Of a DNA stretch of 39,348 nucleotides, positions 587 through 38,364 are shown in pieces. The stretch comes from a virus. The stretch lies in the UHGV virus genome UHGV-0146801; one strand, 5' to 3'. The position numbers were made by a program, and so were the translations under genes. Below the pieces are notes generated by a model. It was given only the letters and a program-made list of their open reading frames with translations, was not told where the DNA came from and ran no database searches. The first letter of the stretch is position 1. Each line of letters begins with the position of its first letter.

Positions 587-602
587 TAGATAAGTTTTAG
601 AT

Positions 603-616
603 AACAAAAAACCCAT
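603..616. repeat. Left copy of 14-bp direct repeat AACAAAAAACCCAT (candidate prophage att core)
   Basis: Identical 14-mer at 36521..36534; lies between the host rcdA stop and phage int. Confidence 0.55.
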
Positions 617-690
617 TTATGTAAACGGGTTAATGAAAACAATAAGTTAGAGCAAAAACAATAAGTTGGGTTGGTGGTCAGTGGTGGTGA

Positions 691-1743
691 TTACGGGGTA
701 ATGCCAACCGCTGCCGCCACTTTGTCGCCACTTGGCAGCGTTGCCAGAGGATTGAAACGGAGCGCCGTTTCCAGATGATCCGGTGCCAGATGTGCGTAAC
801 GCATAGTCATTTTTATATCGTGGTGTCCGAGAATTTTTTGTAAGGCCAGAATGTTTCCACCCGACATCATGAAGTGCGCCGCAAACGTATGGCGCAGAAC
901 GTGTGTGAGTTGACCGCGAGGGAGCACGATAGACGTTTTTTCCATCACGGATAAAAATTGAAAATAGCAGTCTGTAAAGAAATTGAACCCATCAAGCGCC
1001 ATGATCTCTTCGTAAAGCTCTTTACTTATAGGGATGCTTCTGTTTTTCTTCCCCTTCGTTCTGACAAAGGTAATTCGGTATTTGGTCACCTGTGAGCGGG
1101 TAAGATTTACGGCTTCACGCCAGCGTGCGCCTGTGCTTAAGCATATCTTAACTACCAGTGCCAGAATTGGGTCCTGACGTTTGCAATCAGCCAGCAATTC
1201 AACAATCTGCTCATGGGTAAGCCATGCCATCTCTTTTTCTGCGATGGTGAATTTTCGCATGTTCTCCAGTGGGTTCGGATACGACCATTCGCCCAGACGG
1301 GATAGTTCGCTAAAAACACTACTTAGATAGCTTTGCTCCAGGTTAATGGTGACCGGGCTTGCTCCTTTCTTCCATTTCTCGCTGAAGTAGATCTCGCCTG
1401 TCAGGCGTTTATCTCGATAGTGGGCAAACATTTTAGAGGTGAGATCGGTTGCAAGAGGATTGCCCAGAGCGTCAACCATCAACAGCAATTTGTCATAGAC
1501 ATGCTGCCCAGCTGTCAGAGATTTACCATGTAGTTTGAACCATAGCTCAACCACGTCTTTCAGTGTTCGACGATCCACTGATTCACCCAGCCAGGGCTTT
1601 GCTTCGGTTTCTTCCATCGTGTGGCGCTCAAAAGCCAGAGCTTCGCCTTTGGTGGCGAATTGTTTACGCACCCGACGCCCACTACGTCCGGCGGGGTAAC
1701 ATTCGCAAAGCCATTTTCCTGTGGTGAGTTTTCGTACTGCCAT
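691..1743 (-). CDS. int: Tyrosine integrase, P2-type
   Basis: 350 aa; C-terminal catalytic region with HVLRHTFA...LGHHDIKMTMRYAHL (R..HxxR..Y signature); adjacent to att repeat. Confidence 0.9.
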   Translation of the reverse strand: MAVRKLTTGKWLCECYPAGRSGRRVRKQFATKGEALAFERHTMEETEAKPWLGESVDRRTLKDVVELWFKLHGKSLTAGQHVYDKLLLMVDALGNPLATDLTSKMFAHYRDKRLTGEIYFSEKWKKGASPVTINLEQSYLSSVFSELSRLGEWSYPNPLENMRKFTIAEKEMAWLTHEQIVELLADCKRQDPILALVVKICLSTGARWREAVNLTRSQVTKYRITFVRTKGKKNRSIPISKELYEEIMALDGFNFFTDCYFQFLSVMEKTSIVLPRGQLTHVLRHTFAAHFMMSGGNILALQKILGHHDIKMTMRYAHLAPDHLETALRFNPLATLPSGDKVAAAVGITP

Positions 1744-1829
1744 AATAAAGCCCTCATATCAGAGGGCTAAATTTAACTGTATGTTTGACCAGTGGTCAAT
1801 GTATGGTTTAGTTTATTCAAACAATGCTT

Positions 1830-3347
1830 TTAATCAAATGATGTGGCCAGTTCAATTAATTCAATGTAATTATGTAAGGCATAAAAAGATGTATTCAGTC
1901 CATTCTCTATAAGGGCTCCTTGCAAATACTTTATAGCTGTATCACCATCAATAGGGCCTTGTTGAGATTTAATCATTAGTGAATTTTGCCCATTGTTTTT
2001 TATACTTGATTTAAGTATTTTTATATTATTGATAAAATACAATGCAACATCTAAGTAATTTATTAATGTTAAACTTATTTTGGGCTCGATCTGTGAGATG
2101 AATAATCTACTGTTCGCCGTTGTATAGATATAATTGACACCTATTCTTTGCTGATTTGTATCAAGATTTAATTCAAGGATGGCTTGAGAAACACCTTTTA
2201 AATTGGAGCTTTGCTTTATCGAATCAGTGAAACGTTGTGCTGCATTTCTTCGACCAATTAGTCCATCTATAATTTGACGATCCTTATCATATATAATCAT
2301 TAGCGAAATTATAAAAATATAATCTACTTTCTTTTTGACTAAATCAGATTTAAGAATGTCTATTAACCTTTCAGTATTTCGGATTGAGTCTCTTAGATTT
2401 AACCCAAATGCTTCAAATACGTTGGAAATATTTATTGAAAAGTCTTCTAATGTTGCGGTTAGTGGGTATGTTTTTGATGTGATATTTTCAAACTCGGTAC
2501 CAATATAATCACCAACAACACCATTAATTAAATCTTTAAGTTCAGGTTGTTTTAAAGTAAATCTTCTATGAAAAAAACGGCCTAAATAGTCATTTGCGGA
2601 AAAATCATTACCGTAAACATTCTTGATTGAATGTTGTAATTGATCTGTGTCAGTAGCAATAATAAAGACAAAATTTTTAATATCGAATATATGTTTAACA
2701 ATCTCTAAAAGAGAAATTGCATAATCTGGCCTGCATCTGTCTAATTCATCTATAAAGATAAATATAGGACATGAAAAACTATTTTCATATGCCAACCTAG
2801 ACCATAACGTAAGTTCTTTTTTTAATACCTTAATGCTCTTCAGTTTTTCCTGGTGTTCCTTCAGCATTATTAATGAGGCTTCTTTGGCTATATCACCTAC
2901 GTTATCTACTCCTGCATAAGTCTTGATTAGGCCAGATATGATTTCAGGTAGAACACCTTTTGTAAAGCGTCCGATAGCATGGCCGCTTTGTATCAATCGA
3001 GCATCAAGTTTTCCTGCATATGTTTGCAATTGTTGTGACAAAGAAGAAAAAAGGGTTAAAAATGCATCATCAGAAAAGTCTTGCTTCCAGGCATCAATGT
3101 AAACGCATGGGTGTGCATCTTTTATTGAGTTATAAAATCTCTTTATGAAAAAACTTTTACCAGCTCCCCATTCTGCATTAAGGTTGATTACCGTGTTGTT
3201 CTTTTGCCCCTTTTCCTTAAGATAAAAATATAGATATTCTGCATAGTGTCTCCGATTAAGTTTGTCTTTGGAGAGAATTTCCTCTTCGTCGTCTAATATA
3301 AAGGTAGTTTCTTCATCCCAGTTCCAATTACAATCACCACATTTCAC
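1830..3347 (-). CDS. KAP-family P-loop NTPase (cargo, candidate defence gene)
   Basis: 505 aa; Walker A with KAP-type tryptophan NAEWGAGKSFF and Walker B IFIFIDELDRCRP (DELDRC motif); AT-rich coding sequence. Confidence 0.8.
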   Translation of the reverse strand: MKCGDCNWNWDEETTFILDDEEEILSKDKLNRRHYAEYLYFYLKEKGQKNNTVINLNAEWGAGKSFFIKRFYNSIKDAHPCVYIDAWKQDFSDDAFLTLFSSLSQQLQTYAGKLDARLIQSGHAIGRFTKGVLPEIISGLIKTYAGVDNVGDIAKEASLIMLKEHQEKLKSIKVLKKELTLWSRLAYENSFSCPIFIFIDELDRCRPDYAISLLEIVKHIFDIKNFVFIIATDTDQLQHSIKNVYGNDFSANDYLGRFFHRRFTLKQPELKDLINGVVGDYIGTEFENITSKTYPLTATLEDFSINISNVFEAFGLNLRDSIRNTERLIDILKSDLVKKKVDYIFIISLMIIYDKDRQIIDGLIGRRNAAQRFTDSIKQSSNLKGVSQAILELNLDTNQQRIGVNYIYTTANSRLFISQIEPKISLTLINYLDVALYFINNIKILKSSIKNNGQNSLMIKSQQGPIDGDTAIKYLQGALIENGLNTSFYALHNYIELIELATSFD

Positions 3348-3372
3348 TATGAAGTCTCCATGAAAAATTTAC

Positions 3373-4296
3373 TTAATGTAAACAACTTATAATAACTTTT
3401 GCAATAAACTCAATGTCTGTAAGCGAACATTCAAAAGAGTGATTTTTGGATGAAATATAAACTCGTCCTTTAGGTAGTCGAGTTATCATTCTAAATGAAT
3501 TCTCTCCATCAATATTTACTAGCCACTTACCATCATGTACATCTTTAAAACCCATTTCACATATTAATTCAGAGTCTTCGGTAGATACTACGAATGCATT
3601 TTTTAAATTGGAAGGTAGAAAACATGGGTCAAATAAATATGAGCCATCATTTATTAACTTGCCATTGATTAATACTTTTTTCACTAATGTTAAAGTATCT
3701 TTATTTTTTGCGTTTTTCATTTCTCCTGTACCAAATGAAATCCATTCAATAGAATGGCCCGTTTCTATTGCACACTGCAAAACCCAGTCTGCAGGAAAAA
3801 TGTCACGCATGTATCGTGTGGCTAATGTGCTTTTTGAAATACCTAGGTGATCAGCTAATGCTTGGCGCGTTTTGTAACCGTAAGCCTCGACAATTCGTTC
3901 TATTGTTGCCTTACCCCCTCGGTTAAAATTCATGAGTTTTTCATTATCGAACTTTATAGTGGGAATGTATACTTCATTGCAAAGGCCATTAACGGCATGT
4001 TTTTCAGAATATTGCTCTGATGAAGGAGCAGTATCTGAACCAAGAACTAACCATTCAATTGATGCTCCTGTTTCTATGGAACATATAACAACCCAATCTG
4101 CAGGAAAGGTATTACGTGCATATCTGTTGGCCATAGTACTTTGGGAAATACCTAGATGATTACATAATGCCTGTCGTGACTTGAAGCCATAGGCTAGGAG
4201 TATACGCTCAATAACTTTTTGCCCTCCACGATTCTGCATGACTATTGCTTTCAGATCGTTTTTGATATGGCTAAATTTTAATTTTTGAGTTGACAT
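3373..4296 (-). CDS. CI-repressor paralog with two tandem N-terminal HTH domains and a CI-like C-terminal domain
   Basis: 307 aa; two copies of the I(E)R(I/M)(L/V)xAYG(F/Y)K(S/T)RQAL..HLGISxST(M/L)A.RY.R..FPADWV block, and a C-terminus that aligns with the adjacent CI (LPKGRV vs LPGGRI, FLPSNLKNAFVV vs FLPSTLKNPFVI). Confidence 0.75.
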   Translation of the reverse strand: MSTQKLKFSHIKNDLKAIVMQNRGGQKVIERILLAYGFKSRQALCNHLGISQSTMANRYARNTFPADWVVICSIETGASIEWLVLGSDTAPSSEQYSEKHAVNGLCNEVYIPTIKFDNEKLMNFNRGGKATIERIVEAYGYKTRQALADHLGISKSTLATRYMRDIFPADWVLQCAIETGHSIEWISFGTGEMKNAKNKDTLTLVKKVLINGKLINDGSYLFDPCFLPSNLKNAFVVSTEDSELICEMGFKDVHDGKWLVNIDGENSFRMITRLPKGRVYISSKNHSFECSLTDIEFIAKVIISCLH

Positions 4297-4346
4297 ATTT
4301 TTTACACCACAACAAATGCTTTACCAAGCATAAAAACATTCCTATA

Positions 4347-4922
4347 TTACTCAAAGTACTTAACTGTTATGGTTATAATTTTTCCAATAATTTCGATTTC
4401 TTCTTTTTTACATTCGAAAGCCCTATTTCCACCTTCAACTAAGATTCTTCCACCAGGTAAACGAGTGATATCGCGGATTGTTACTTCGGCATCAATACTT
4501 ATTACCCATTTGCCGTCACGAATATCGTTAAACTCTTTATCGCAAATAAAAACGGAATTGTTATCGGTGATTACAAACGGATTTTTGAGCGTAGATGGTA
4601 GAAATTCTTTATCGAAAATATAAAAACCATCTTCCTGCAAGGTTCCATCAGATAATACATATTTAACGACTTCCATAGTATTTGTATTACCTGAAGTTTG
4701 CTTTGAACCATGTCCGGTCGTGAGCCAGTTAAGCGAGGCGCCCGTTTCAAGTGCGCACTGGATTACCCATTCAGCAGGGAATGAGTCACGCATATAGCGT
4801 GTGGCGAGAGTACTTTTAGAGATTCCTAAGTGATCGCACAACGCCTGTCGAGTCTTGAAGCCATATGCTTCTACCATGCGCTCTATAGCGCCTCGTCCGC
4901 CTTTCTCCAAATTCATGGTCAC
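4347..4922 (-). CDS. cI: Immunity repressor CI, phage 186 type
   Basis: 191 aa; N-terminal HTH (AYGFKTRQALCDHLGISKSTLATRY) and C-terminal oligomerisation-like domain; divergent from apl/cII as in 186. Confidence 0.85.
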   Translation of the reverse strand: MTMNLEKGGRGAIERMVEAYGFKTRQALCDHLGISKSTLATRYMRDSFPAEWVIQCALETGASLNWLTTGHGSKQTSGNTNTMEVVKYVLSDGTLQEDGFYIFDKEFLPSTLKNPFVITDNNSVFICDKEFNDIRDGKWVISIDAEVTIRDITRLPGGRILVEGGNRAFECKKEEIEIIGKIITITVKYFE

Positions 4923-4940
4923 TCCAAGTGAACTTTTGTC

Positions 4941-4969
4941 TTGACGATTTCATTATGCGATCGTATGTT
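4941..4969 (+). promoter_or_regulatory. Candidate lytic promoter pR (-35 TTGACG, 17-bp spacer, -10 TATGTT) in the cI-apl switch region
   Basis: Sigma70-like hexamers with canonical spacing read in the 119-bp cI/apl intergenic region. Confidence 0.4.
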
Positions 4970-5041
4970 TATGATGTTCACAAAATACAAACGATCCGTA
5001 TTCGTCCTGATTAATCAACATTAAACGAGGAATGTTGCATC

Positions 5042-5263
5042 ATGAAACATAACATTTCAATCACTCTTACCACGCCTCATGTGACTATTGAACGTTATAG
5101 CGAGCTGACAGGGCTATCCATCGATACTATCAATGACATGTTGGCTGATGGACGTCTTATCCGTCACCGTCTGCGGAAAGATAAAAAACGCGAAAAAGTG
5201 ATGATCAACATAGCAGCCATGACCGTTGATGCGCTTTCAGAATGCAATCTAAACCTTAATTAG
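5042..5263 (+). CDS. apl: Apl/Cox-like excisionase-repressor
   Basis: 73 aa small basic protein, first gene of the rightward operon facing cI; position as in phage 186. Confidence 0.6.
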
Positions 5264-5289
5264 TTCGATTCTGAAATACATCAGAGGCA

Positions 5290-5805
5290 TTGACCATGTT
5301 TGATTACCAAGTTTCCAAACATCCACATTTTGATGAAGCCTGTCGTGCATTCGCATTGCGCCACAACCTGGTGCAACTGGCAGAACGTGCTGGCATGAAT
5401 GTGCAGATTCTGCGGAACAAGCTGAACCCAGCTCAACCTCATTTATTAACCGCACCAGAAATCTGGCTGCTTACCGATCTGACTGAAGATTCAACGCTGA
5501 TAGATGGTTTTCTGGCACAGATTCACTGCCTGCCATGTGTACCGATTAATGAGGTAGCAAAAGAGAAACTGCCGCATTACGTCATGAGTGCAACCGCAGA
5601 GATCGGGCGTGTTGCTGCAGGTGCGGTATCTGGCGATGTAAAAACCAGTGCAGGTCGTCGTGATGCTATCAGCAGCATTAACTCTGTAACACGACTGATG
5701 GCGCTGGCTGCTGTTTCATTGCAGGCCCGTTTACAGGCTAACCCTGCGATGGTGAGTGCAGTTGATACCGTGACTGGCCTCGGTGCTTCATTCGGTTTGC
5801 TGTGA
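5290..5805 (+). CDS. cII: CII-like lysogeny establishment regulator (186 type)
   Basis: 171 aa; position immediately after apl; alpha-helical N-terminus, size matches 186 CII. Confidence 0.6.
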
Positions 5806-5812
5806 GGTACTT

Positions 5813-6109
5813 GTGCTGAAGAAAGAACCATCATTTGCATCGCTGCTGGTAAAACAAAGCCCGGCAATGCATTACGGTCACGGCTGGATCATGGGTGAGG
5901 ATGGTAAACGCTGGCATCCATGTCATTCACAAGATGAATTGCTGTCTGAATTGACCACGAGGAAACGGAGAAAGTCAAAATGTATGCAGCGGAAAGTGAA
6001 GTGGTTTATCAGTTTCGTTACAGAGGGGAGAGTTATTCAGTACCTGAAGATGATTTGCTCTGTTGTTATCCGTCGTTGTCGGGCGATGGCAGTTACTTTT
6101 TCACGCTAA
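5813..6109 (+). CDS. Possible Fil-like (filamentation) protein; GTG start
   Basis: GAGG RBS 5 nt upstream of GTG 5813; N-terminal part (KEPSFASLLVKQSPAMHYGHGWI...KRWHPC) looks protein-like, but the 3' part overlaps the next ORF and looks low quality. Confidence 0.3.
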   Translation: MLKKEPSFASLLVKQSPAMHYGHGWIMGEDGKRWHPCHSQDELLSELTTRKRRKSKCMQRKVKWFISFVTEGRVIQYLKMICSVVIRRCRAMAVTFSR

Positions 6110-6204
6110 GGGATGGGACGTTTTTACGGGGAGAGCAGGTTAAAGAGACGATACGAAAAAATGTATCTCCTCTTGAACGTTACCGTAAGAACAAAGAACG
6201 ATAG
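5980..6204 (+). CDS. Hypothetical small early protein
   Basis: 74 aa ORF with GGAG RBS; plausible composition; overlaps the preceding frame. Confidence 0.4.
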   Translation: MYAAESEVVYQFRYRGESYSVPEDDLLCCYPSLSGDGSYFFTLRDGTFLRGEQVKETIRKNVSPLERYRKNKER

Positions 6205-6226
6205 TTGCGTTTTGGGGATATGAATT

Positions 6227-6568
6227 ATGGCAATTAATGGCGCTGCGGCGACTGTTCCATTAAGCCCCGGTGAACGCCTGAATGGACTTAATCACATTGC
6301 GGAGTTAAGGGCGAAAGTATTTGGCCTGAATATTGAGTCAGAGCTTGAGCGGTTTATTAAAGATATGTGTGATCCACGGGATATCAATAACGAACAAAAT
6401 AAACGAGCACTGGCTGCCATATTCTTTATGGCAAAAATTCCAGCTGAACGTCATAGCATCAGCATTAATGAGCTGACCACTGACGAAAAGCGGGAGCTGA
6501 TTAAAGCAATGAATCATTTTCGTGCAGTGGTGAGCTTATTTCCCAGACGGCTAACCATGCCGAATTAA
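6227..6568 (+). CDS. Hypothetical early protein
   Basis: 113 aa ORF in the early operon. Confidence 0.5.
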   Translation: MAINGAAATVPLSPGERLNGLNHIAELRAKVFGLNIESELERFIKDMCDPRDINNEQNKRALAAIFFMAKIPAERHSISINELTTDEKRELIKAMNHFRAVVSLFPRRLTMPN

Positions 6569-6629
6569 CCAATTAATGAAAATCATGGCGTAAACCCGCC
6601 GGGCATCCCTTTATCTAAATTCAGGAGAA

Positions 6630-7395: not shown

Positions 7396-8249
7396 GCACC
7401 ATCCTGAAATGGGCGGGTAATAAAACTGCCATTATGTCCGAACTGAAAAAACATCTTCCTGCTGGCCCGCGACTGGTTGAACCTTTCGCGGGTTCCTGTG
7501 CTGTGATGATGGAGACGGATTACCCCAGCTATCTTGTTGCGGATATTAATCCTGATTTAATCAACCTCTATAAAAAGGTTGCTGCTGATTGCGAGGCGTT
7601 TATATCTCGTGCCAGAGCTTTATTTGAGGAAGCAAACAGGGAGGTGGCTTATTACAACATAAGGCAGGAGTTTAATTACTCCACTGAAATTACTGATTTC
7701 ATGAAAGCGGTATATTTCCTGTATCTCAATCGTCATGGTTACCGTGGGTTATGTCGTTATAACAAGAGCGGGCATTTCAACATTCCATACGGTAATTATA
7801 AAAATCCGTATTTCCCTGAAAAAGAAGTTCGCGCATTTGCAGAGAAAGCCCAGCGAGCAACGTTTATCTGCGCCAGCTTTGATGAAACGCTGGCGATGCT
7901 GCAGGTGGGGGATGTGGTGTATTGCGATCCGCCTTATGACGGTACGTTTTCCGGCTATCACACTGACGGCTTCACTGAAGATGACCAGTATCACCTGGCA
8001 TCTGTTCTTGAATATCGATCATCAGAAGGTCATCCAGTCATTGTTTCTAACAGTGACACATCCCTGATCCGTTCGCTGTATCGAAATTTCACTCACCACT
8101 ACATCAAGGCAAAACGCAGCATCGGCGTGTCGGCTGGCGAGAGTAAATCTGCAACAGAAATCATTGCTGTTTCCGGGGCGCGCTGCTGGGTGGGATTTGA
8201 TCCTTCGTGTGGCGTGGATAGTTCTGCTGTGTACGAGGTGCGTGTATGA
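7392..8249 (+). CDS. dam: DNA adenine methyltransferase (Dam-like, no cognate nuclease nearby)
   Basis: N-terminal KWAGNK and FAGSCAV (SAM-binding) and catalytic DPPY motif ([10 protein letters not shown]); ATG 7392 after GGAGG. Confidence 0.85.
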
Positions 8250-10660
8250 GTCATGACGATATGAGCAACTCTAGCGGCTTTAACGAGGCCGCTGCAGCAT
8301 TTTCATGGAACGGCCCGAAAAAGGCCATTAACCCTTATCTGGACCCGGCGGAAGTTGCTCCGGAGTCTGCACTTTTAAACCTGATCACTCTGTACGCTGC
8401 CGATAATGAGCAGGAACAGCTGCGCCGCGATGCACTGAGTGAGCAGGTCTGGGAGCGTTATTTCTTTAATGAATCTCGTGATCCTGTCCAGCGCGAAATG
8501 GAGCAGGATAAGCTCATTAGCCGGGCAAAGCTGGCGCATGAGCAGCAGCGTTTTAATCCAGATATGGTCATTCTGGCGGACGTCAATGCCCAGCCTTCCC
8601 ATATCAGCAAGCCGCTGATGCAACGTATTGAATACTTCAGCAGCCAGGGCAGGCCAAAGGCTTATTCCCGCTATTTGCGTGAGACGATTAAGCCATGTCT
8701 GGAACGACTGGAGCATGTACGCGACTGTCAGCTATCCACTTCTTTTCGCTTTATGGCAAGCCATGAAGGGCTGGACGGCCTGCTGATCCTGCCTGAAATG
8801 AGTCAGGATCAGGTGAAGCGTCTGTCTACCCTTGTCGCTGCGCATATGAGCATGTGCCTTGATGCAGCTTGTGGTGATTTGTATGCCACCGATGACGTTA
8901 AGCCAGAAGAAATCCGCAAGACGTGGGAAAAGGTGGCAGCGGAAACCCTGCGTCTGGATGTTATCCCGCCTGCGTTTGAGCAACTCCGTCGGAAAAGAAA
9001 CCGCCGTAAACCCGTGCCCTATGAACTCATTCCGGGTTCGCTGGCGCGTATGTTGTGCGCCGACTGGTGGTATCGGAAATTATGGAAGATGCGTTGCGAA
9101 TGGCGGGAAGAGCAGTTGCGCGCTGTCTGCCTGGTCAGCAAAAAAGCATCTCCCTATGTCAGCTATGAAGCCGTGATGCATAAACGTGAGCAGCGCCGTA
9201 AGTCGCTGGAGTTTTTTCGTTCTCATGAACTGGTGAACGAAGACGGCGACACGCTGGATATGGAAGACGTGGTAAACGCCAGCAGCAGCAACCCTGCGCA
9301 TCGCCGCAATGAGATGATGGCCTGTGTTAAAGGTCTGGAGCTTATCGCGGAAATGCGCGGAGACTGCGCCGTTTTCTACACTATCACCTGTCCGTCACGT
9401 TTCCATTCCACGCTCAACAACGGCAGACCCAACCCGACCTGGACAAATGCGACGGTAAGACAAAGCAGCGATTATATGGTCGGCATGTTTGCTGCATTTC
9501 GTAAGGCAATGCACAAAACCGGGTTGCGCTGGTATGGCGTGCGGGTGGCTGAGCCGCACCATGACGGTACTGTGCACTGGCATCTCATGTGCTTCATGCG
9601 TAAAAAAGACCGCCGCGCCATCACTGCATTACTGCGTAAGTTTGCCATCCGTGTAGACCGCGAGGAGCTGGGCAACAACACGGGGCCACGCTTTAAGTCT
9701 GAGCTGATTAACCCGCGCAAAGGAACACCGACAAGCTACATCGCGAAATACATCAGTAAGAACATTGACGGGCGTGGTCTGGCTGGCGAGATCAGCAAGG
9801 AAACGGGTAAATCCCTGCGTGATAACGCCGAATACGTTAATGCCTGGGCGTCTCTGCATCGTGTTCAGCAATTCCGCTTCTTTGGTATTCCGGGGCGTCA
9901 GGCTTACCGTGAACTGCGATTGCTGGCTGGTCAGGCGGCAAGGCAGCAGGGGGACAAAAAAGCAGGTGCGCCGGTACTGGATAACCCACGCCTTGATGCC
10001 ATTCTGGCTGCTGCTGATGCTGGTTGTTTTGCCACCTACATCATGAAGCAGGGCGGCGTACTGGTTCCCCGCAAATATCACCTCATCAGAACCGCTTATG
10101 AAATCAACGAAGAGCCGACCGCCTATGGCGATCACGGCATTCGTATTTATGGCATCTGGTCACCCATTGCAGAGGGCAAGATCTGTACTCATGCAGTGAA
10201 ATGGAAAATGGTTCGTAAGGCCGTTGACGTTCAGGAGGCGGCAGCCGACCAGGGCGCTTGCGCCCCTTGGACTCGTGGCAATAACTGTCCCCTTGCTGAA
10301 AATTTGAACCAACAAGGGAAAGACAAATCAGCTGATGGGGACTCCAGAACGGATATTACCCGTATGAATGACAAGGAGTTGCACGATTACCTGCATAGTA
10401 TGAGCAAAAAAGAGCGCCGGGAACTGGCTGCAAGGTTACGCCAGGTGAAACCGAAACGGCGTAAAGACTACAAACAGCGAATTACAGACCATCAGCGACA
10501 GCAGCTCGTCTATGAACTGAAGTCCAGGGGATTTGATGGCAGCGAGAAAGAAGTCGATTTGCTCCTTCGCGGCGGCAGTATTCCGTCAGGAGCAGGCCTG
10601 CGTATCTTCTATCGGAACCAGCGTCTGAAGGAAGATGATAAGTGGCGGAACCTGTATTAA
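8246..10660 (+). CDS. A: Replication initiation endonuclease, P2 gpA-like
   Basis: 804 aa; HxH-type motif VHWHLMCF and tyrosine-rich [14 protein letters not shown] typical of rolling-circle initiators; position as in P2/186. Confidence 0.85.
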
Positions 10661-10812: not shown

Positions 10813-11001
10813 ATGCAGGACTATTTTTTGGAGTCTTTGAAGCTCCAGCGCATTGATTTTTTTCTTAAGCTTGTAGCGGCTAGTGAGTGTAGTGATGAAG
10901 AGAAGGGGCTGGCTCTGCAGTGGGTTTCTGAATTGACTGATGAACTCATGGCAAAAATCAGAAGCCACGAATACAACCGCTCAATGGATGTCATCAGCTG
11001 A
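10813..11001 (+). CDS. Small SOS-regulated protein, function unknown
   Basis: 62 aa ORF with AGGAGG RBS directly downstream of the LexA box. Confidence 0.5.
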   Translation: MQDYFLESLKLQRIDFFLKLVAASECSDEEKGLALQWVSELTDELMAKIRSHEYNRSMDVIS

Positions 11002-11011
11002 GGTGACTTTT

Positions 11012-11245
11012 ATGCGCATTGAAATAATGATCGATAAAGAGCAGAAGATTAGCCAGTCTACCCTGGACGCCCTTGAATCCGAGCTTTACCGCAATCTGCG
11101 CCCCCTGTATCCCAAAACGGTAATTCGCATTCGCAAAGGTAGCTCTAACGGTGTGGAACTAACCGGACTGCAACTGGATGAAGAAAGAAAACAAGTGATG
11201 AAAATTATGCAGAAGGTGTGGGAGGACGACAGCTGGCTGCATTAA
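11012..11245 (+). CDS. DinI-family protein (Tum-like antirepressor candidate)
   Basis: 77 aa, MRIEIMIDKEQKISQSTLDALESELYRNL resembles DinI/MsgA; position and LexA control parallel the phage 186 tum module. Confidence 0.7.
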   Translation: MRIEIMIDKEQKISQSTLDALESELYRNLRPLYPKTVIRIRKGSSNGVELTGLQLDEERKQVMKIMQKVWEDDSWLH

Positions 11246-11437: not shown

Positions 11438-11773
11438 TTACGAATGATCATTCTGTTTAGTCTTCATGAGAAAATCCCGAATCTTTGCCAAGTTTGAATT
11501 TTCGGGGATTGAATCCATGTACGGATCACGCTCAAACACTAATTGCTCAGATTCAACGAAAGCCTGCCACTCTACTGGGTCTAGCTCAAATCCCATTGCT
11601 GTCATATCACTTTCATCTTCCCCCTCGATCCAGTGGACTAAATAAAACAATTCATCATCAGGAGAATCATCCTCACCATCAACAATATCAACATCGGTTA
11701 CAGTGATACGTAGGGTGGGATCGATTTTTGAGACATAAATTCCTAACTGTGGTATAGGGGGAATATTGTTCAT
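11438..11773 (-). CDS. Small, highly acidic protein (candidate DNA mimic or anti-defence)
   Basis: 111 aa with about 25% Asp+Glu and few basic residues; runs of DGEDDSPDDE and EGEDESD. Confidence 0.6.
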   Translation of the reverse strand: MNNIPPIPQLGIYVSKIDPTLRITVTDVDIVDGEDDSPDDELFYLVHWIEGEDESDMTAMGFELDPVEWQAFVESEQLVFERDPYMDSIPENSNLAKIRDFLMKTKQNDHS

Positions 11774-12291
11774 GGAAACTCCTTTTATTGGTGTTTGCTA
11801 TTTGAATAAAAATACGCCAAACAGAGTGTTAACTGTGAATATGGAAAGAATCGTTGTAAGTACCCCGCTTAGGTGTCCCATTCTATTTTAGAGGTTCTCG
11901 TGCATATGGATTATGTTATCTGAAAGTTAACTTCCGCTTCCCGTTCACAGCGAACATTCATCTTTGTAAACCCGTATGATCCGTTTTTCAAGTGGCCATT
12001 CAGATACGGATTTTTACTTCTTTGACAGTGCATGACTATGCTGCATGAAATCGCATGATCGATTGAGGATCGTCTTTGCTCAGATCCGCCAGAACTGGCG
12101 GGCTTTTGCTCATGTCATGCATGTGCATGAAAACCACTGCATAAAGCGGGCAGGCGTGGCGGGGATACGAGCGCGCGCGGATACATAATTAATAATATAA
12201 CATAAAATGTTAAGTTGCTTTTGCGTTAGCACTGGATTACATTACCGAAATAGTCAAAAATGCGTTTTTTACGCAAAAATGAGGACTTCAG

Positions 12292-13521
12292 ATGCTAGTT
12301 GCATTCAGTTTAGAAAATTACAAGAGCTTTCGCGAAAGACAGGTTCTTAGTTTTGCTTCCTCAATTGGGGATGAGCATCCTGAACATATCGTGACATTAG
12401 CGAATGGTTTAAGAGTAAACAGATTTGCCGCATTAATAGGCGGAAATGGTGTTGGTAAAACACAATTAATAAATGCTATTACTGAATTTGCAAATTCAAT
12501 TCATAGTGACACATTACACAAATTGCATATGCCTTTCCTTCTAAATAAGGAATGTCGTAACAAACCTACTTCCTATGAAGCGATACTGATTGATGAAGAG
12601 CAAAAAAACTTCGTCCGTTATGGTGTGTCAGTTTTAAATGAAGTTATTGTAGATGAGTATTTATACATTAGACCGATAAGAAAAAATGCAAGGGAACAAT
12701 GTATTTTTATTCGCAATGAAAATGGGTTGGTTTTCAAAAAGCCCGACTTAAAAAAATACGAGTCGTTGATTAATCCTGTCTTAAGAGAAAGTGGAGCTGT
12801 TGTAACTTTTGCAAAATCTTTAGAAATTGATGCTCTTGTTGAAACCCAACGCTGGGCATTAAAACAATTGCCTTATTACTCTGAAAAATTCAAAAATCCA
12901 AGTCTTAAATTTGTTGAAGGACAACTTAAGCGCCAGTTATCAGGTGAGGAAGGAAATGAAAAATTAAATGAGAGTGGTCAAAGAATTTTAAATACCTATA
13001 ATGAAATGGTTATTCAGTCGCCGCTGCATATAGATAAAGTTGAATTTGTAAGATTTGGCGAAGATAATGAGTATAAATTTGTTTATCTCATAAAAAATGA
13101 TGATGGTGATTTTACTAGAATAGGCCCTGACCGTAGGGATGAATTTTTTTCCCAAGGCACACTAAATGTTTTAACATTTTTAGCAATATTGATTTGGGCT
13201 AGTGAATATGATTTTACACTTTATGTGGATGAAATAGATTCATCTATTCACTATTCTTTGGCAAGTGCACTAATCAAAAAAATATTTGATAAAACCTGCC
13301 GTAAAAATGGTGTGCAGTTTATTATGTCTACACATAATATTCCTTTATTAGATGATGTGTTTAGAAGAGATGAGCTTAATATTATAGTCAAGGATTCATC
13401 TAAAGCGTCGATAATAACTAATGCTACGGTATTTTCTGTAAGGAAAGATGCTAAAGTGTCTGCCAAATATTTACGTGGCGAATTTGGATTAGTTCCAGCT
13501 TTTCTTGATATAAAAAACTAA
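12292..13521 (+). CDS. ABC/OLD-type P-loop ATPase (AAA_15/21-like)
   Basis: 409 aa; Walker A GGNGVGKT, signature-like FSQGT, Walker B/D-loop LYVDEIDSSIH, H-loop MSTHN; AT-rich. Confidence 0.8.
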   Translation: MLVAFSLENYKSFRERQVLSFASSIGDEHPEHIVTLANGLRVNRFAALIGGNGVGKTQLINAITEFANSIHSDTLHKLHMPFLLNKECRNKPTSYEAILIDEEQKNFVRYGVSVLNEVIVDEYLYIRPIRKNAREQCIFIRNENGLVFKKPDLKKYESLINPVLRESGAVVTFAKSLEIDALVETQRWALKQLPYYSEKFKNPSLKFVEGQLKRQLSGEEGNEKLNESGQRILNTYNEMVIQSPLHIDKVEFVRFGEDNEYKFVYLIKNDDGDFTRIGPDRRDEFFSQGTLNVLTFLAILIWASEYDFTLYVDEIDSSIHYSLASALIKKIFDKTCRKNGVQFIMSTHNIPLLDDVFRRDELNIIVKDSSKASIITNATVFSVRKDAKVSAKYLRGEFGLVPAFLDIKN

Positions 13522-13534
13522 GCGTGAGAAAAAC

Positions 13535-14614
13535 ATGACTAGCTTTGCTTATGATGGTGATATTTTGACACCTAATAATTTAGAAATTACATCCTTCGCC
13601 ACATTGAAATCAAAAATAAGAGAGCGAAGAGTATGTGTTTTTCTCGGAGCAGGATTTTCTAAAGCCTGGGATGACAAATACCCATTGAGTAATGAAGTCT
13701 TTTCCATCTCTGAAGACGAAGCATTAGAAAATATTGATGAGTATGGTTTTTTTTCTTTGTTCGACAGTCTTAAATTTAAATGGGCGGATGCTAATGCAGG
13801 TTTAGATGACAAAGCTAATGTTTTCAAGAGTTTTAAATATGCATTGGATGTTTATAAGCGATATCCAAGTTTATTGCCGTCGTATCTTGATAGGCATACG
13901 CTTGAGTTGTTTGAGGCACAAGTAAAACTATATGTAAAAAATAAGTTTGCAAAAAAAATACCGGCAAATGATTTAAAGCTAAGTCAAACTGCAAAATTTG
14001 GGCAGAATAAAAGGAATATTATTTCTTTCTTTAAGAGTTTACAGGAAGCTTCAGCACTGGATGTAGTCACAACAAACTACGATATAGTTATTGATAAAGT
14101 GCTACATCATGCATTCCCTGAACGTTCAGTTAATCGGGGTTTTCCTGTGCATCATAATAATATATTAGTGTGTCCTCAGCCTAAAGGTATAGGTTTGTAT
14201 AAGCTTAATGGAGGATTTGAGGTTGTTGCTGCAAGGGATGGTTTTAAAATAGATTATGATTCATTATTAAACGCAAAAGTTGTTCCAAATATTATCTTGC
14301 CTTCAAATGAACAAGACTATGGGGATAAATACTTTAAGTCAGCTTTTGTGAAATCCTCTACCCAGTTGAGACAAGCAGATCTGTTGATCTTTATAGGTTA
14401 TTCTTTCCCAAAGGAAGACTTTATTATTAATTTTCTTTTGAAGACTTTTCTGGATGGCGATAGTACTGAAAAAGAGACTGTTATTATTGGGCGAAATAAA
14501 TCTAGTGCTATTGAGATACACCAGCGTGCGTGTGAAGTTTTTAAAGAACTAAATGATAAATCTGCACTGTATTATTTCGGTGGTAGTTTTTCTGATTTAT
14601 GTAAACAATGTTAG
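13535..14614 (+). CDS. SIR2-like (DHS-like NAD-binding fold) protein, candidate NADase effector
   Basis: 359 aa; Rossmann motif VCVFLGAGFS, TTNYD motif (VVTTNYDIVID), C-terminal LLIFIGYSFPKED; 13 bp downstream of the ATPase. Confidence 0.75.
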   Translation: MTSFAYDGDILTPNNLEITSFATLKSKIRERRVCVFLGAGFSKAWDDKYPLSNEVFSISEDEALENIDEYGFFSLFDSLKFKWADANAGLDDKANVFKSFKYALDVYKRYPSLLPSYLDRHTLELFEAQVKLYVKNKFAKKIPANDLKLSQTAKFGQNKRNIISFFKSLQEASALDVVTTNYDIVIDKVLHHAFPERSVNRGFPVHHNNILVCPQPKGIGLYKLNGGFEVVAARDGFKIDYDSLLNAKVVPNIILPSNEQDYGDKYFKSAFVKSSTQLRQADLLIFIGYSFPKEDFIINFLLKTFLDGDSTEKETVIIGRNKSSAIEIHQRACEVFKELNDKSALYYFGGSFSDLCKQC

Positions 14615-14619
14615 TATAC

Positions 14620-14645
14620 TAGGCCTGATTACAGGCCTATTTTCT
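14620..14645. terminator. Hairpin TAGGCCTG-atta-CAGGCCTA followed by TTTTCT between convergent SIR2-like and Q genes
   Basis: Perfect 8-bp stem with 4-nt loop and T-run on the + strand. Confidence 0.55.
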
Positions 14646-15672
14646 ATAATTTATATTTTTCGAAGTTTATGATGTCGTCACCAATAAATCCGTTGAATCC
14701 TTGTATAATTCTTTGAAGCGGAATTAACTCATTACGTACAAATACATTTGCGGCCTTCTCCACATCCCCAAATCCCCCGACATTATTCGGCATAATCCCC
14801 ATCATCTGAGGCGGCACGCGGTGCGCAGCCATCATGTCATCACGGCTCACGTTCTTGATATTCAGAAATTCATCCTTCGCCGCGACTTCTGACAACGGGA
14901 TAATCTGAAGTCCGTCCTTTTTGCCGTTCGGCGAGTACATAAACAGGTTGCGGAAGTTGCCCGGACCTTTGGCGCTTTTCATCGCGTTGCGGAGGTTGTT
15001 CACATCTTCCTGGTTCTGCGCGGCGTCGGTCATGTACATGATGAAGCCAGCATGACTGCCGTTAATGTAATACTTGCGGCGGAACAGCGTGGCGGACTCG
15101 TTGAGCAGGGCTGACGGAATGGCAGAAAGATAACCGGGCAGGCCGTAGATCTCTTGGTTGATGTCCGGTTCCATCAGATGAAAAATGCTGCCTTTCGTGA
15201 ACTGATACGGCTGGGTTGTCATACCGTATTGCACAAACCAGTAGGTATCTAGGTCTAACCCGCGTCGGGTGTATTTCGCCAGGGCAGGTTCAAGGGCGAT
15301 CACTTCACCGAAGCGGTTCGTGCGTTTCTCCAGGTAGGCGTTACCAAATACCAGATAGTCCTGCACAAAACGCGAAAAAGCCTGCTGGCTGAGCAGCGGG
15401 TGAGGGATGTAGGTGCTGGTCAGAATGTTGCACTTTACTGCAATCGGGGAACTATGATGCACGGCAGCGCGGAAGGTGCGCGCCAGTCCGTCAAAGCTGA
15501 CGGGCGGCTCATACCAGCGGTCCATCTGTACGCATTCCACATAATCCAGCAGTTCTCGGCGGTCCAGAACAGGAACGGGATCGCCGAAGCTGAATGCTTC
15601 GGCTGTAGTTTGACTTTTAAGCTGGATCTGTTTCGTCGCCGCAGCGCGGTTCTTCTTACTCTTTCCCATCAA
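14644..15672 (-). CDS. Q: Portal protein, P2 gpQ-like
   Basis: 342 aa; position and size match P2 Q; divergent from O across a late promoter region. Confidence 0.9.
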   Translation of the reverse strand: MMGKSKKNRAAATKQIQLKSQTTAEAFSFGDPVPVLDRRELLDYVECVQMDRWYEPPVSFDGLARTFRAAVHHSSPIAVKCNILTSTYIPHPLLSQQAFSRFVQDYLVFGNAYLEKRTNRFGEVIALEPALAKYTRRGLDLDTYWFVQYGMTTQPYQFTKGSIFHLMEPDINQEIYGLPGYLSAIPSALLNESATLFRRKYYINGSHAGFIMYMTDAAQNQEDVNNLRNAMKSAKGPGNFRNLFMYSPNGKKDGLQIIPLSEVAAKDEFLNIKNVSRDDMMAAHRVPPQMMGIMPNNVGGFGDVEKAANVFVRNELIPLQRIIQGFNGFIGDDIINFEKYKL

Positions 15673-17435
15673 AAAATCTCCACAATATTGCTTGTATTGG
15701 CGGATTCGCCCTGCAGCGGTTCGTTAAACAGTGCGTGCATCGTTGCCCAGGCCAGATCGGCGTGGCTGGCTTCTTCGCTGCGGCTGGCTTCATAGGTCGG
15801 GCGGTTGCCACTGGCGGTGGTGGCGCGACGGATTGCCATAAAGGACTGCGCTATGTCGGTGTGTCCGGCGTCAAACTCCAGACGGCGGTGGCTGATAATG
15901 TCGTAGGCCTTGAGTACCAGGGCGTTTTTAACGTTGGGGTTGTAGACAAACTCCCGGACGGCAGGAAAAAACGCTTTCACGTTCTCGTAAACCCCGTGAC
16001 CAACGCCGGTTGAGTCGATACCGATATAGGTCACGTTGTACTGTTCGGTCAGTTTTTTGATGGCGTCAGCCTGGGCGCGGAAGTCCATTCCGCGCCACTG
16101 GTGACGCTCAAGAATGCGGAACTTACCGCCCGGCACGGCTGGCGGCGCCACCACCACGCATCCGGCGCTGTCGCCGTTCTGCGTACCTTTCGCCGGGTCA
16201 TATCCGATCCACACTTCGCGCCAGCCAAACGGGCGCAGGGCCAGTGCATGAAAGTCGGTCCAGACTTCCCAGCTGTCCACCATGCACGCCTGCAGCTCGC
16301 TGAGCGGGAACACGGACGCGAGATCGTCCACGAACTCACACATCAGCAGGTTCTGGTATTCGTCCGGGCTGTATTCCATGCGCAACTGGTCGAGGTCGAA
16401 CAGGTTACAGCCGCCGCGCACCGCATCTTCCACAGTGACTATCTGGCGGTACTGCCCGTCTGCGCACAGCAGGCCGGGGGCCAGATTGCTGTGGGACAGG
16501 TCGATGTCCACCTTATCGGCTTTGTTGCGCCCTCGGTTGAACAGCGCACCGGACCAGAACGGATAAGCACTGTGTGTCAGGCTGGATGGCGTGGAAAAAT
16601 AGGTCTGTCGCCATTTTTTGTGAATAGCCATACCGGAAGCCACTTTGCGCAGCTCCTGGAATTTCGGTATCCAGAAATATTCATCCAGATACAGGTTGCC
16701 GTGGTAACTCTGGGCCGTGCGGGCATTGGTGCCGAGGAAGTAAAGCGTGGCCCCGTTAGGAAGCACCATCGGATCACCTTTCAGCTCCACCTCGACTTCT
16801 TTGGCGAAATCGATGATGTACTGCTTAAAGACGTGAGCCTGTGCCTTACTGGCAGAAAGGAAAATCTGGTTACGTCCGGTAAGCAGGGCGTCAATCAGGG
16901 CCTCACGGGCAAAATAGAAGGTCGCGCCGATCTGGCGTGACTTTAGCAGGTTGCGGATGCGGTTGGTTTTTCCGGCTTCCCACCAGTGGCGCTGGTAGTT
17001 GAACATGGAGGAATGGAAAATTTCTTCCAGCTTCTCAATTTGTTCATCGGTGAAAACATTCTTTTCAGGCTGACGGCGTGGGCCTTTGTTGCGGTTGGCG
17101 ACGTTAGGGTTTAAGTCGGCTTCGTTGCCGCCATTGTTAAACTTGCCGATCCGCGCGTGGCGCTCAGACTGGCGCGCCAGCAGGTCAATCTCTTTGAAAT
17201 CTTTCCCTTCTTTGTGCTCCTTCATGATGAGCTGGCAGTAGCGTGCGGCGGTGGTGAGCTGCATCTGATCCAGCGGCCCATAGTCACCCCACTTGTCGCG
17301 TTTTTTCCAGCTGTGAACGGTTGCAACTTTCTCGCCCAGCATTTCAGCAATGCGGGCTACGCGGTATCCCTGAAAGTACAGCAGCATGGCCTGCCGACGG
17401 GGATCGAGATCTGCGGGTGTCAGTGTGGTGTTCAT
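15669..17435 (-). CDS. P: Terminase large subunit (ATPase), P2 gpP-like
   Basis: 588 aa; overlaps Q by 4 bp; size and order as in P2. Confidence 0.9.
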   Translation of the reverse strand: MNTTLTPADLDPRRQAMLLYFQGYRVARIAEMLGEKVATVHSWKKRDKWGDYGPLDQMQLTTAARYCQLIMKEHKEGKDFKEIDLLARQSERHARIGKFNNGGNEADLNPNVANRNKGPRRQPEKNVFTDEQIEKLEEIFHSSMFNYQRHWWEAGKTNRIRNLLKSRQIGATFYFAREALIDALLTGRNQIFLSASKAQAHVFKQYIIDFAKEVEVELKGDPMVLPNGATLYFLGTNARTAQSYHGNLYLDEYFWIPKFQELRKVASGMAIHKKWRQTYFSTPSSLTHSAYPFWSGALFNRGRNKADKVDIDLSHSNLAPGLLCADGQYRQIVTVEDAVRGGCNLFDLDQLRMEYSPDEYQNLLMCEFVDDLASVFPLSELQACMVDSWEVWTDFHALALRPFGWREVWIGYDPAKGTQNGDSAGCVVVAPPAVPGGKFRILERHQWRGMDFRAQADAIKKLTEQYNVTYIGIDSTGVGHGVYENVKAFFPAVREFVYNPNVKNALVLKAYDIISHRRLEFDAGHTDIAQSFMAIRRATTASGNRPTYEASRSEEASHADLAWATMHALFNEPLQGESANTSNIVEIF

Positions 17436-36678: not shown

Positions 36679-38364
36679 TTATCCTAATCCTGGCCATACC
36701 ATGACGATGATTGTCCCTGCCAGCGTCAGCAGGACGTTGGCGATTGCGTAAGTGCCCGCATAGCCCAGCGCCGGGATATTACTGCGAGCTGTATCACTGA
36801 TGATCTCCATTGCCGGCGCGCAGGTGCGTGCGCCCATCATTGCGCCGAACAACAGTGCGCGGTTCATTCGCAATACATAAGCACCGAACAAGAAGCAGAT
36901 AACCACTGGCACCAGACTGACAATCAATCCGGCAATCAACATCTGACCGCCAATCGCGCCCAGGCCGTTATTAATACCGCTACCAGCGCTCAGACCAACG
37001 CCTGCCATAAACACCATCAAGCCGAACTCTTTCACCATGCTTAATGCACCCTGCGGAATGTAACCGAAGGTCGGGTGGTTAGCACGCATAAAGCCCAGCA
37101 TAATTCCGGCGAATAACAACCCGGCAGCGTTCCCCATGCCGAAACTGAATGTGCTGAACTGGAAGGTGATCATCCCGATCATCAGCCCAATAACAAAGAA
37201 GGCGCAGAATGCCAGCAAGTCAGTGACCTGGCTGTGAATCGAGATAAAGCCGATGCGATCGGCGATGGTTTTTACCCGGCGGGCATCGCCGCTGACTTGT
37301 AAAACGTCACCTTTGTTAAGCACGACGTTGTCATCTATCGGCATCTCAATCTGGCTACGAATGACGCGGTTAAGGAAGCAACCGTGATCGGTCAACTTCA
37401 GTTGTGCCAGGCGTTTGCCAACAGCGTTATGGTTTTTAACGACCACTTCTTCAGTGACGATACGCATGTCGAGAAGGTCACGATCGAAAACTTCTTTGCC
37501 ATTACGGAAACTGGGATCGAGTCGGGCGTGGGCGTCAGGATAGCCTACCAACGCTATTTCATCGCCCATTTGTAGTACGGCATCACCGTCTGGATTTGCC
37601 AGAATCCCGTTACGCCGAATACGTTCAATGTAGCAGCCGGTTTGTCGATAAATACCCAGTTCACGCAGATTTTTGCCGTCGGTCCAGGCTACCAGCTCCG
37701 GGCCGACGCGGTAGGCGCGGATCACCGGCAAATAAACCTTACGGTTGGCATCTGTGTCCAGGCCACGTTCGCGGGCGATTTGCTGGGCGCTGGTCTGTAA
37801 GTCCTGATGCTGCAATTTCGGCAAGTAACGCGCACCAACAATCAAACTCACCAGACCGATTAAATAGGTTAAGGCATACCCGAGGCTCAGATTATCCAGT
37901 GCCAGTGAGAGCTGCCTGCTTTCCATGCCGGAATGACGCAGTGTATCGCCAGCACCGACCAGAACCGGTGTCGACGTCATAGAGCCTGCTAACATACCGG
38001 CCGTCAGGCCAATATCCCAGCCAAACAGCTTACCTAACCCTAAGGCGATCACCAGCGCACTGCCAACCATCACCAGTGCTAACATTAGGTAATTTTTCCC
38101 ATCGCGAAAAAAAATGGAAAAAAAGTTCGGTCCGGCTTCGACCCCGACGCAGAAAATAAACAGCATAAAGCCAAGATTAAGCGCATCGGTGTTAATGCTG
38201 AAATGTTGTTGGCCTAATAACAGCGATACGACTAAAACGCCAATGGAATTACCCAGTTGGATCGAACCAAGTCGTAATTTCCCGAGACATAGCCCAAGCG
38301 CGAGGACCACAAATAATAACAGAATGTAATTCCCATTTAACAATTCGGCGACGTTTATATTCAC
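36679..38364 (-). CDS. ybjL: Putative transporter YbjL (host)
   Basis: 561 aa polytopic membrane protein with central soluble domains; matches recalled E. coli YbjL. Confidence 0.8.

Follow-up and report, generated by a model that had tools for sequence, protein, structure and literature searches.

Is a SIR2 protein that carries asparagine in place of the catalytic histidine a decayed enzyme, a re-equipped one, or a protein that binds a nucleotide without acting on it? The question is raised by a two-gene cassette in the virus genome UHGV-0146801, a stretch of 39,348 nucleotides (nt) that carries a P2-like prophage and that we refer to as the window. The cassette consists of a gene for an ABC-type ATPase followed, on the same strand, by a gene for a protein of the SIR2_2 family. 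Mechanistic models of defence sirtuins all rest on an Asn-His dyad, and the subfamily to which this protein belongs, which we call the NGGFE clade after its motif, departs from that arrangement.

Asparagine in the catalytic-histidine column

The first-pass annotation of the window, made by eye, had read the TTNYD motif as intact at residues 179-183 and had tentatively placed Asn225, in LYKLNGG, where SIR2 NADases carry their catalytic histidine. We used a profile built from 50 homologues to search the PDB, the window protein as a lone phmmer query having found no match among PDB sequences, and obtained a match to the SIR2 structure of SIR2-HerA at an E-value of 9e-12. In the resulting alignments the family motif LyKlnGG pairs with LYKIHGS (8yhx_G), LWKLHGS (8w9l), LYKLHGS (8j4u, E. 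coli SIR2-HerA) and VYKMHGD (6lhx, ThsA), and the TTNYD of the window protein, at exactly the residues claimed, falls on TTNYD in the same four structures. Comparison of the Asn clade with 22 His-bearing relatives in hhalign gave a probability of 99.94% and set KiNGGFEV opposite KLHGSlNW. The by-eye placement is thus borne out, and on these alignments Asn225 occupies the catalytic-His column of the SIR2 NADases. Of the features that define an Asn-His-dyad NADase, the protein has the GAGxS loop and the Asn of TxN(Y)D and lacks the His of the K(L/I)HG motif.

The fold itself is preserved. The protein passes the Pfam threshold for SIR2_2 (PF13289; 35 bits against a cutoff of 24.5, E 1.8e-8, residues 177-323), has no model in NCBIfam, and yielded 66 homologues. 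An AlphaFold2 (AF2) model made with the family alignment as input reached a predicted local distance difference test score (pLDDT) of 92.3 and a predicted template modelling score (pTM) of 0.89. Foldseek ranked the SIR2 of SIR2-HerA first (E 1e-11 to 1e-13), followed by sirtuins and ThsA, and gave probability 1.00 to the SIR2-HerA SIR2, Sir2Tm, Sir2Af2, PfSir2A and ThsA. The model confirms, at the level of predicted structure, the SIR2 superfamily fold with its Rossmann core and helical small domain, and retains the helical insertion (helices 60-171). In it, N225 follows closely on the C-terminus of Rossmann strand 219-223, and the other motifs sit where strands 32-37, 174-179, 251-253 and 283-287 end C-terminally, or directly beyond; these strand ends form the usual nucleotide crevice of a Rossmann fold.

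Another way to view Asn225 is as a property of the family, and here the first-pass description of one protein needed correction, as the residue is no quirk of that protein. Searching 1.84 billion cluster representatives with a clade profile, we obtained 68 matches below 1e-30 and saw a sharp break in the scores: the weakest full-length clade member reaches about 199 bits, and the full-length relatives that come next about 85 bits. When aligned with hmmalign, the motif-covering matches at or above 170 bits all read K[LIV]NGG[FLIMA][ED], with one exception (NGS), and K[LI]HGS.NW is the usual reading among full-length relatives with lower scores. We then compared columns between 95 full-length clade representatives and the 35 nearest His-type outgroup representatives. 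Column 225 is N in 95/95 of the clade and H in 35/35 of the outgroup; column 227 is G in 99% against S in 97%; column 229 is E in 97% (the remainder D) against N in 89%; column 260 is Q in 95/95 against K in 32/35 (91%); and column 271 is F in 96% against W in 97%. R201 is present in 99% of the clade and 34% of the outgroup. The remaining SIR2 motifs are shared: G38 and G40 (100% in the clade) and A39 (95%) are common to the outgroup too, N181 and D183 (100%) and Y182 (99%) stand at 97-100% there, and the full list of invariants common to both groups is G38/A39/G40, N181/Y182/D183, K223, G226, P251, P256, G288, S290, P292 and D295. Columns that are conserved in both groups and yet differ between them point to an altered function or ligand and not to decay. 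A decayed copy or pseudogene is ruled out by the intact open reading frame, the Asn in all 95 representatives and the retained motifs.

With one genome taken per species, a further scan yielded 90 relatives and retained the top 80; because it was seeded with GAGFSK[AS]W and L[YFL]K[LI]NGGFE, it is biased towards motif-bearing proteins. Its record labels cover Alpha-, Beta- and Gammaproteobacteria, Bacteroidota, Chloroflexota, Cyanobacteria, Nitrospirota, Desulfobacterota, Actinobacteria and KSB1, placing the clade in genomes labelled as at least seven phyla. In the combined set of genome and metagenome loci, 90/90 clade sequences carry the signature N-D-R-K-N-G-(E/D)-Q, and residue 271 is F except for I or L in two cases. 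Judged from sequence, the His-less SIR2 proteins are a large, discrete, old and phylum-spanning subfamily of which Asn225 is the fixed hallmark. It is apparently undescribed so far, no description of an Asn-type SIR2 clade having been found in a literature search whose incomplete coverage makes this absence of evidence only. Separately, a metagenomic outgroup protein of 358 residues (P0158) shows a lone His-to-Asn change on a canonical SIR2_2 scaffold: it reads KINGSLNW and keeps the Ser, the Asn-Trp, the Lys and the Trp, in natural contrast to the NGGFE clade, where all these columns have switched.

An ATPase partner in a prophage hotspot

The SIR2 start codon lies 13 nt beyond the stop codon of the ATPase gene (Table 1). 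The ATPase matches AAA_21 (E 9e-14) and AAA_15 (E 9e-10) in Pfam, and its best PADLOC match is AbiLi (PDLC02335, E 2e-51), followed by AriA (E 5e-16 and 4e-12) and PtuA (E 8e-9). Besides the Walker motifs it has the signature F286-S287-x-G289 and an H-loop histidine, H348; Walker A, signature, Walker B and H348 are invariant in six partner ATPases of 28-88% identity. The AF2 model, built with database homologues, has a pLDDT of 86.5, and its best Foldseek matches are PtuA of Septu and retrons (8ee4, 8eea and 9n6c, E ~1e-12), SMC and Rad50 heads, and OLD.

The pairing recurs. An AAA_21 ATPase of 400-420 amino acids (aa) stands directly 5' of the SIR2 gene in 6/6 checked loci (the window, a Klebsiella, a Providencia, two Vibrio and one Alteromonadales), with SIR2 identities of 34-100% and the two genes overlapping or at most 17 nt apart. 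Thirteen ATPase and SIR2 matches also pair up by equal size of their longest contig. In a neighbour-joining tree of the clade, the ATPase-linked branch is sister to all remaining members. The nearest ATPases outside the SIR2-linked group, at 23-26% identity over the full length, have an overlapping RloB (PF13707) partner of 203-219 aa in 3/3 checked cases, which is the AbiL architecture; the His-less SIR2 protein therefore occupies the effector slot. The second gene has no RloB, TOPRIM or DUF4435 match in Pfam or PADLOC, and the window cassette contains no other effector domain, the ATPase being a bare ABC head. Thus, the cassette pairs an AbiL-like ATPase with a His-less SIR2 that has taken the place of the TOPRIM-like second gene.

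Membership of the established systems was considered and rejected: SIR2-HerA because HerA is absent and an ABC ATPase (AAA_21/AAA_15, SMC-head fold) is found as the partner instead, PARIS proper because there is no AriB-like (DUF4435 TOPRIM) gene, and AbiL proper because there is no RloB/TOPRIM second gene. As far as we found, in a literature search of incomplete coverage, no ABC-ATPase+SIR2 cassette has been described.

The cassette lies between a P2-type gpA gene (8246-10660) and the convergent portal gene gpQ (14644-15672, minus strand), the portal and terminase genes together spanning 14644-17435 on the minus strand. RefSeq annotates the same arrangement at a near-identical locus of E. coli E9, running from replication endonuclease to AAA family ATPase, SIR2 family protein, phage portal and terminase. 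The interval between gpA and gpQ is a known defence hotspot of P2-like prophages (Rousset et al. 2022, PMC9122126), and by its position and foreign composition the cassette is cargo of that hotspot. Beyond the SIR2 stop codon, and before the convergent portal gene is reached, lies a hairpin that is likely the terminator closing the cassette. No strong sigma-70 match was found directly upstream of the ATPase gene.

Table 1. Coordinates of the cassette, its motifs and its composition in the window
Feature	Position	Strand	Basis or remark
Low-GC cargo block	12500-14500		guanine-cytosine (GC) fraction 0.32-0.34 against 0.54-0.62 in the flanks, P2-like prophage
ABC/SMC-head-type ATPase, 409 aa, AAA_21/AAA_15, AbiLi-like	12292-13521	+	Pfam, PADLOC, AF2/Foldseek
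ATPase Walker A, G50-T57 (G50xNGxGK56)	12439-12462	+	
ATPase Walker B, D313-E314	13228-13233	+	
SIR2_2-family protein, 359 aa, His-less NGGFE clade	13535-14614	+	Pfam, AF2, Foldseek
GAGFS, aa 38-42, glycine-rich dinucleotide-binding loop after strand beta1	13646-13660	+	conservation
TTNYD, aa 179-183, holds the Asn of the canonical Asn-His dyad	14069-14083	+	conservation, PDB profile alignment
R201-G202, near-invariant pair specific to the clade	14135-14140	+	conservation
H206-H207 (cat cat), alternative catalytic histidines of the first pass	14150-14155	+	not conserved
LYKLNGGFE, aa 221-229 (LYKLNGG, aa 221-227, 14195-14215)	14195-14221	+	alignments, conservation
Asn225 codon, aat	14207-14209	+	within LYKLNGGFE
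Q260, Lys in the outgroup	14312-14314	+	conservation
F271, Trp in the outgroup	14345-14347	+	conservation
GYSFPKED, aa 288-295, conserved C-terminal SIR2_2 motif (GYSxPxxD)	14396-14419	+	conservation
GC-rich hairpin with T-run, likely terminator	14620-14639		8-bp stem, 5 GC pairs, tail TTTTCTATAA

The cassette is rare and mobile. Among 5,426 complete E. coli genomes a single one has it, under the bare annotations AAA family ATPase and SIR2 family protein; 50,697 phage records searched with tblastn contained no match, and plasmids gave three distant matches. In the Klebsiella locus (L011) it is followed by open reading frames sized like the P2 portal and terminase genes. In Providencia rettgeri (L092, 1-7372), it directly follows a replication gene of primase/D5 type (Zn_Ribbon_Prim, Toprim_3, D5_N) and is followed by a DUF6088 and AbiEii pair, a setting which indicates that the cassette moves between different mobile elements.

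Several other features of the window surround the cassette. Within the hotspot, upstream of it, lie a DinI-like gene (10940-11245, plus strand) and a DUF8087 gene (11438-11773, minus strand), and the intergenic stretch of about 500 nt at 11774-12291 holds three terminator-like hairpins at 12085-12102 (plus), 12149-12134 (minus) and 12275-12261 (minus). Flanked by the integrase (691-1743) and a CI-type repressor gene (4347-4922), the minus strand at 1830-4296 encodes two proteins: one of 505 aa is a KAP-family P-loop NTPase, and the other, of 307 aa, has two CI-repressor helix-turn-helix matches. These genes probably make up another cargo locus of the prophage. An Asp-Al_Ex/TrkA_C permease gene at 36679-38364 (minus strand) is apparently host chromosome, and the prophage is expected to end, on the right, immediately before this gene. 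The window contains no tRNA gene.

Neighbourhoods outside the ATPase-linked branch

Clustering of neighbouring genes identified one strongly recurrent context outside the ATPase-linked branch. At 13 loci the clade SIR2 gene follows two genes co-directionally, the first a true nadC (TIGR00078, 322 bits against a cutoff of 198) and the second encoding a PhnN ribose-1,5-bisphosphokinase (TIGR02322, 180 against 156) fused to an AMP/thymidine-phosphorylase-like enzyme (TIGR02645, 512 against 435). Six of these loci are from Alphaproteobacteria (L018, L033, L035, e.g. 1853-6579, L048, L058 and L069) and seven from Salinicola and a related gammaproteobacterium (L026, L028, L029, L034, L036, L043 and L057). 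A fused TRAP permease gene lies upstream and a MarR regulator gene downstream, and the Salinicola loci also contain XdhC, MobA-like and molybdopterin-enzyme genes. An association of nadC and phnN has been published beside a quinolinate-binding protein, as a quinolinate-salvage context (PMC11452294), and the clusters found here look like a pyridine- or NAD-salvage (nicotinamide adenine dinucleotide) cluster with a SIR2-like component. The link to nadC is in favour of the view that the SIR2 pocket may still recognise a pyridine nucleotide, and it may point to an enzyme or regulator of NAD metabolism that has gone unrecognised.

The remaining immediate neighbours are mostly non-recurrent, and no single partner therefore defines the whole clade. 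Three contexts outside the ATPase-linked branch are defence-island-like: a clade member beside an OLD-family ATPase-TOPRIM nuclease (L045, 2811-4790), one between type III restriction (ResIII) and DNA methylase genes (L050, 1892-9048), and one before a gene for an HD-CE and HATPase_c_3 protein (L022, 6301-9078). Some distant members, at about 30% identity and without the ATPase, adjoin multi-transmembrane proteins (L003, 4239-4913, which also has a KAP NTPase gene upstream at 598-3864; L007, 6271-7362), and another of them adjoins a 343-aa protein with the motif RNAIVH (RNxxxH, a HEPN-like Rx4H; L006, 167-1198). These partners would be effector-like, and the SIR2 protein beside them would be the sensor or signal generator.

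Remodelled effector or inert pocket

We put a probability of about one half on the reading that the window SIR2 is an effector that processes pyridine nucleotides in a remodelled active site. It is favoured by the invariance of the Asn across so many phyla and by the columns that switch together with it, including a newly invariant Glu four residues past the Asn; by dinucleotide motifs that have stayed intact; by the effector slot that the protein fills in a cassette where nothing else could be the effector; and by the placement of relatives in a metabolic operon. The cassette would then be a mobile ATPase module in the style of AbiL, PARIS and Septu in which the RloB/TOPRIM nuclease has given way to a SIR2_2 protein that has kept its binding of a pyridine nucleotide (NAD+ or a related molecule) and serves as the toxic, effector half. 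In PARIS the ATPase senses the trigger and restrains its toxic partner (PMC11464382, PMC13064643); by analogy, the ATPase of the window would either restrain the SIR2 protein or switch it on upon sensing infection. Once activated, the SIR2 protein would cleave or transfer an N-ribosyl bond through the remodelled site, for which the invariant Glu229 is the obvious candidate to replace the catalytic His, and the outcome would be abortive infection. A role in anti-phage defence is suggested by context, namely the gpA-gpQ hotspot, the GC fraction of 0.33 against 0.55, and the AbiEii and D5-type primase genes beside the cassette in Providencia.

Several points weigh against this reading. The defence and vertebrate SIR2 NADases that have been tested all lose activity or defence when the dyad His is mutated, as in SPARSA H186A (PMC10781750), FAM118B H206A and FAM118A H191A (PMC12700824), and KomC H146A (PMC13454610), from which an Asn on the canonical scaffold would be expected to be inactive. 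Engineered His-to-Asn variants exist in the PDB as 9xvc, KomC(H146N), and 1m2j, Sir2 H80N (Sir2Af1); no activity data for either were found in the literature. KomB is a dead-enzyme sensor, and in the defensive HAM1 proteins its catalytic Asp is invariably His (bioRxiv 10.1101/2024.12.20.629578). An invariant substitute residue thus also occurs in a dead-enzyme sensor, and invariance alone cannot separate effector from sensor. The literature searched contained no experiment on an ATPase+SIR2 cassette or on the NGGFE clade.

The same results bear on the reading that the SIR2 protein is inert, its NAD-type pocket binding a nucleotide (NAD+, ADP-ribose or a signal) as a sensor, regulator or scaffold, with any defence arising from sequestration or from the ATPase complex itself. 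It is the main competing reading, but we consider it less likely. The loss of activity on His-to-Ala mutation in all tested homologues speaks for it, as do the immune precedents of KomB and of the SIR2-like domain of SAMD9 (PMC13600222), and the distant clade members beside multi-transmembrane or RNxxxH partners would fit a sensor. However, the window cassette offers no other effector domain, and the relatives of its ATPase use the second gene as a nuclease effector. Moreover, the coordinated switch of five columns, together with an acidic residue that has become invariant, suggests a site that was re-equipped and not lost, and the position in the nadC/phnN-phosphorylase operon is more natural for an enzyme.

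Less probable again is an active enzyme that does something other than hydrolyse NAD+. It might transfer ADP-ribosyl or phosphoribosyl groups, or cleave nicotinic acid mononucleotide (NaMN), nicotinamide mononucleotide (NMN) or nicotinic acid adenine dinucleotide (NaAD), and its defence version would poison a target or pool other than NAD+. Salmonella CobB, a sirtuin, can replace CobT, the phosphoribosyltransferase that acts on NaMN and dimethylbenzimidazole. Consistent with such a reaction, the 13 clusters combine NaMN-forming nadC with a fusion of phosphorylase to PhnN, which forms phosphoribosyl pyrophosphate (PRPP), in keeping with the published salvage context, and the change of Lys to Gln260, the gain of Arg201 and the change of His to Asn alter the charge pattern of the pocket. 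This support is purely associative, however, and the intact GAGFS loop, which normally binds a dinucleotide pyrophosphate, favours a dinucleotide.

Finally, the first-pass suggestion that His206 or His207 serves as the catalytic base, making Asn225 irrelevant, finds no support and is discarded on conservation as scarcely credible, as is the same role for His191 or His192: all four do occur in the window protein, but they are present in 15/50, 5/50, 7/50 and 3/50 relatives respectively, no His column exceeds 40% among those 50, and no His stands among the invariant or near-invariant columns of the 47- or 95-sequence sets.

Returning to the remodelled effector, a bolder version can be put forward tentatively. 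The NGGFE proteins may be a distinct and competent SIR2 class that carries out His-free N-ribosyl chemistry through Glu229 with Asn225, Gln260 and Arg201; they might have arisen on chromosomes as enzymes of NAD or NaMN metabolism beside nadC and a PRPP-regenerating PhnN-phosphorylase, and one branch might have been captured by an AbiL-type ATPase to give a new, prophage-borne abortive-infection system. If the clade is active, SIR2 N-glycosidase chemistry runs on another catalytic set, which affects the annotation of "dead" SIR2 domains in catalogues of defence systems; if it is inactive, it provides a clean natural case of a SIR2 pseudoenzyme as a nucleotide sensor. The AbiL/PARIS/Septu group of prophage-hotspot systems also gains, in this cassette, an ATPase+SIR2 variant with a swapped effector.

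Among known systems, AbiL (AbiLi with AbiLii/RloB) is like the cassette in that the window ATPase fits the PADLOC AbiLi model and both are co-directional two-gene cassettes, and unlike it in that the second gene is SIR2_2 in the window and RloB/TOPRIM in AbiL. PARIS (AriA with the TOPRIM protein AriB, at P2 and P4 hotspots) likewise combines an ABC-type ATPase with a separate effector in a similar prophage hotspot (PMC9122126), but the window cassette is without a DUF4435/TOPRIM partner and its ATPase is closer to AbiLi than to AriA. Septu and retron PtuA proteins are also ABC ATPases with a separate effector and give the best structural matches of the window ATPase, although their partner is the HNH nuclease PtuB and the sequence similarity is weak.

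SIR2-HerA (Nezha) shares the pairing of an ATPase with SIR2, and its SIR2 (8yhx, 8sub) is the closest solved structure to the window SIR2; its HerA hexamer differs from the ABC/SMC-head ATPase of the window, and its SIR2 keeps the catalytic His (LYKLHGS). The wider group of Asn-His NADases (ThsA, DSR2, the Sir2-APAZ of SPARSA, KomC and Avs5), together with vertebrate FAM118, has in common with the window protein the SIR2 fold, GAGxS, the Asn of TxNYD and the strand end KLxG, whereas in the window protein the dyad His is Asn, with Ser to Gly, Asn to Glu, Lys to Gln and Trp to Phe fixed alongside. SAMD9 likewise has a SIR2-like fold, which it uses structurally, but its domain is without the lid domain, unlike the window protein with its helical insertion. 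KomB (HAM1) resembles the window SIR2 in having its catalytic residue invariantly replaced and its ligand pocket kept; it differs in having a separate SIR2 effector beside it, whereas the window SIR2 has no other effector as a neighbour.

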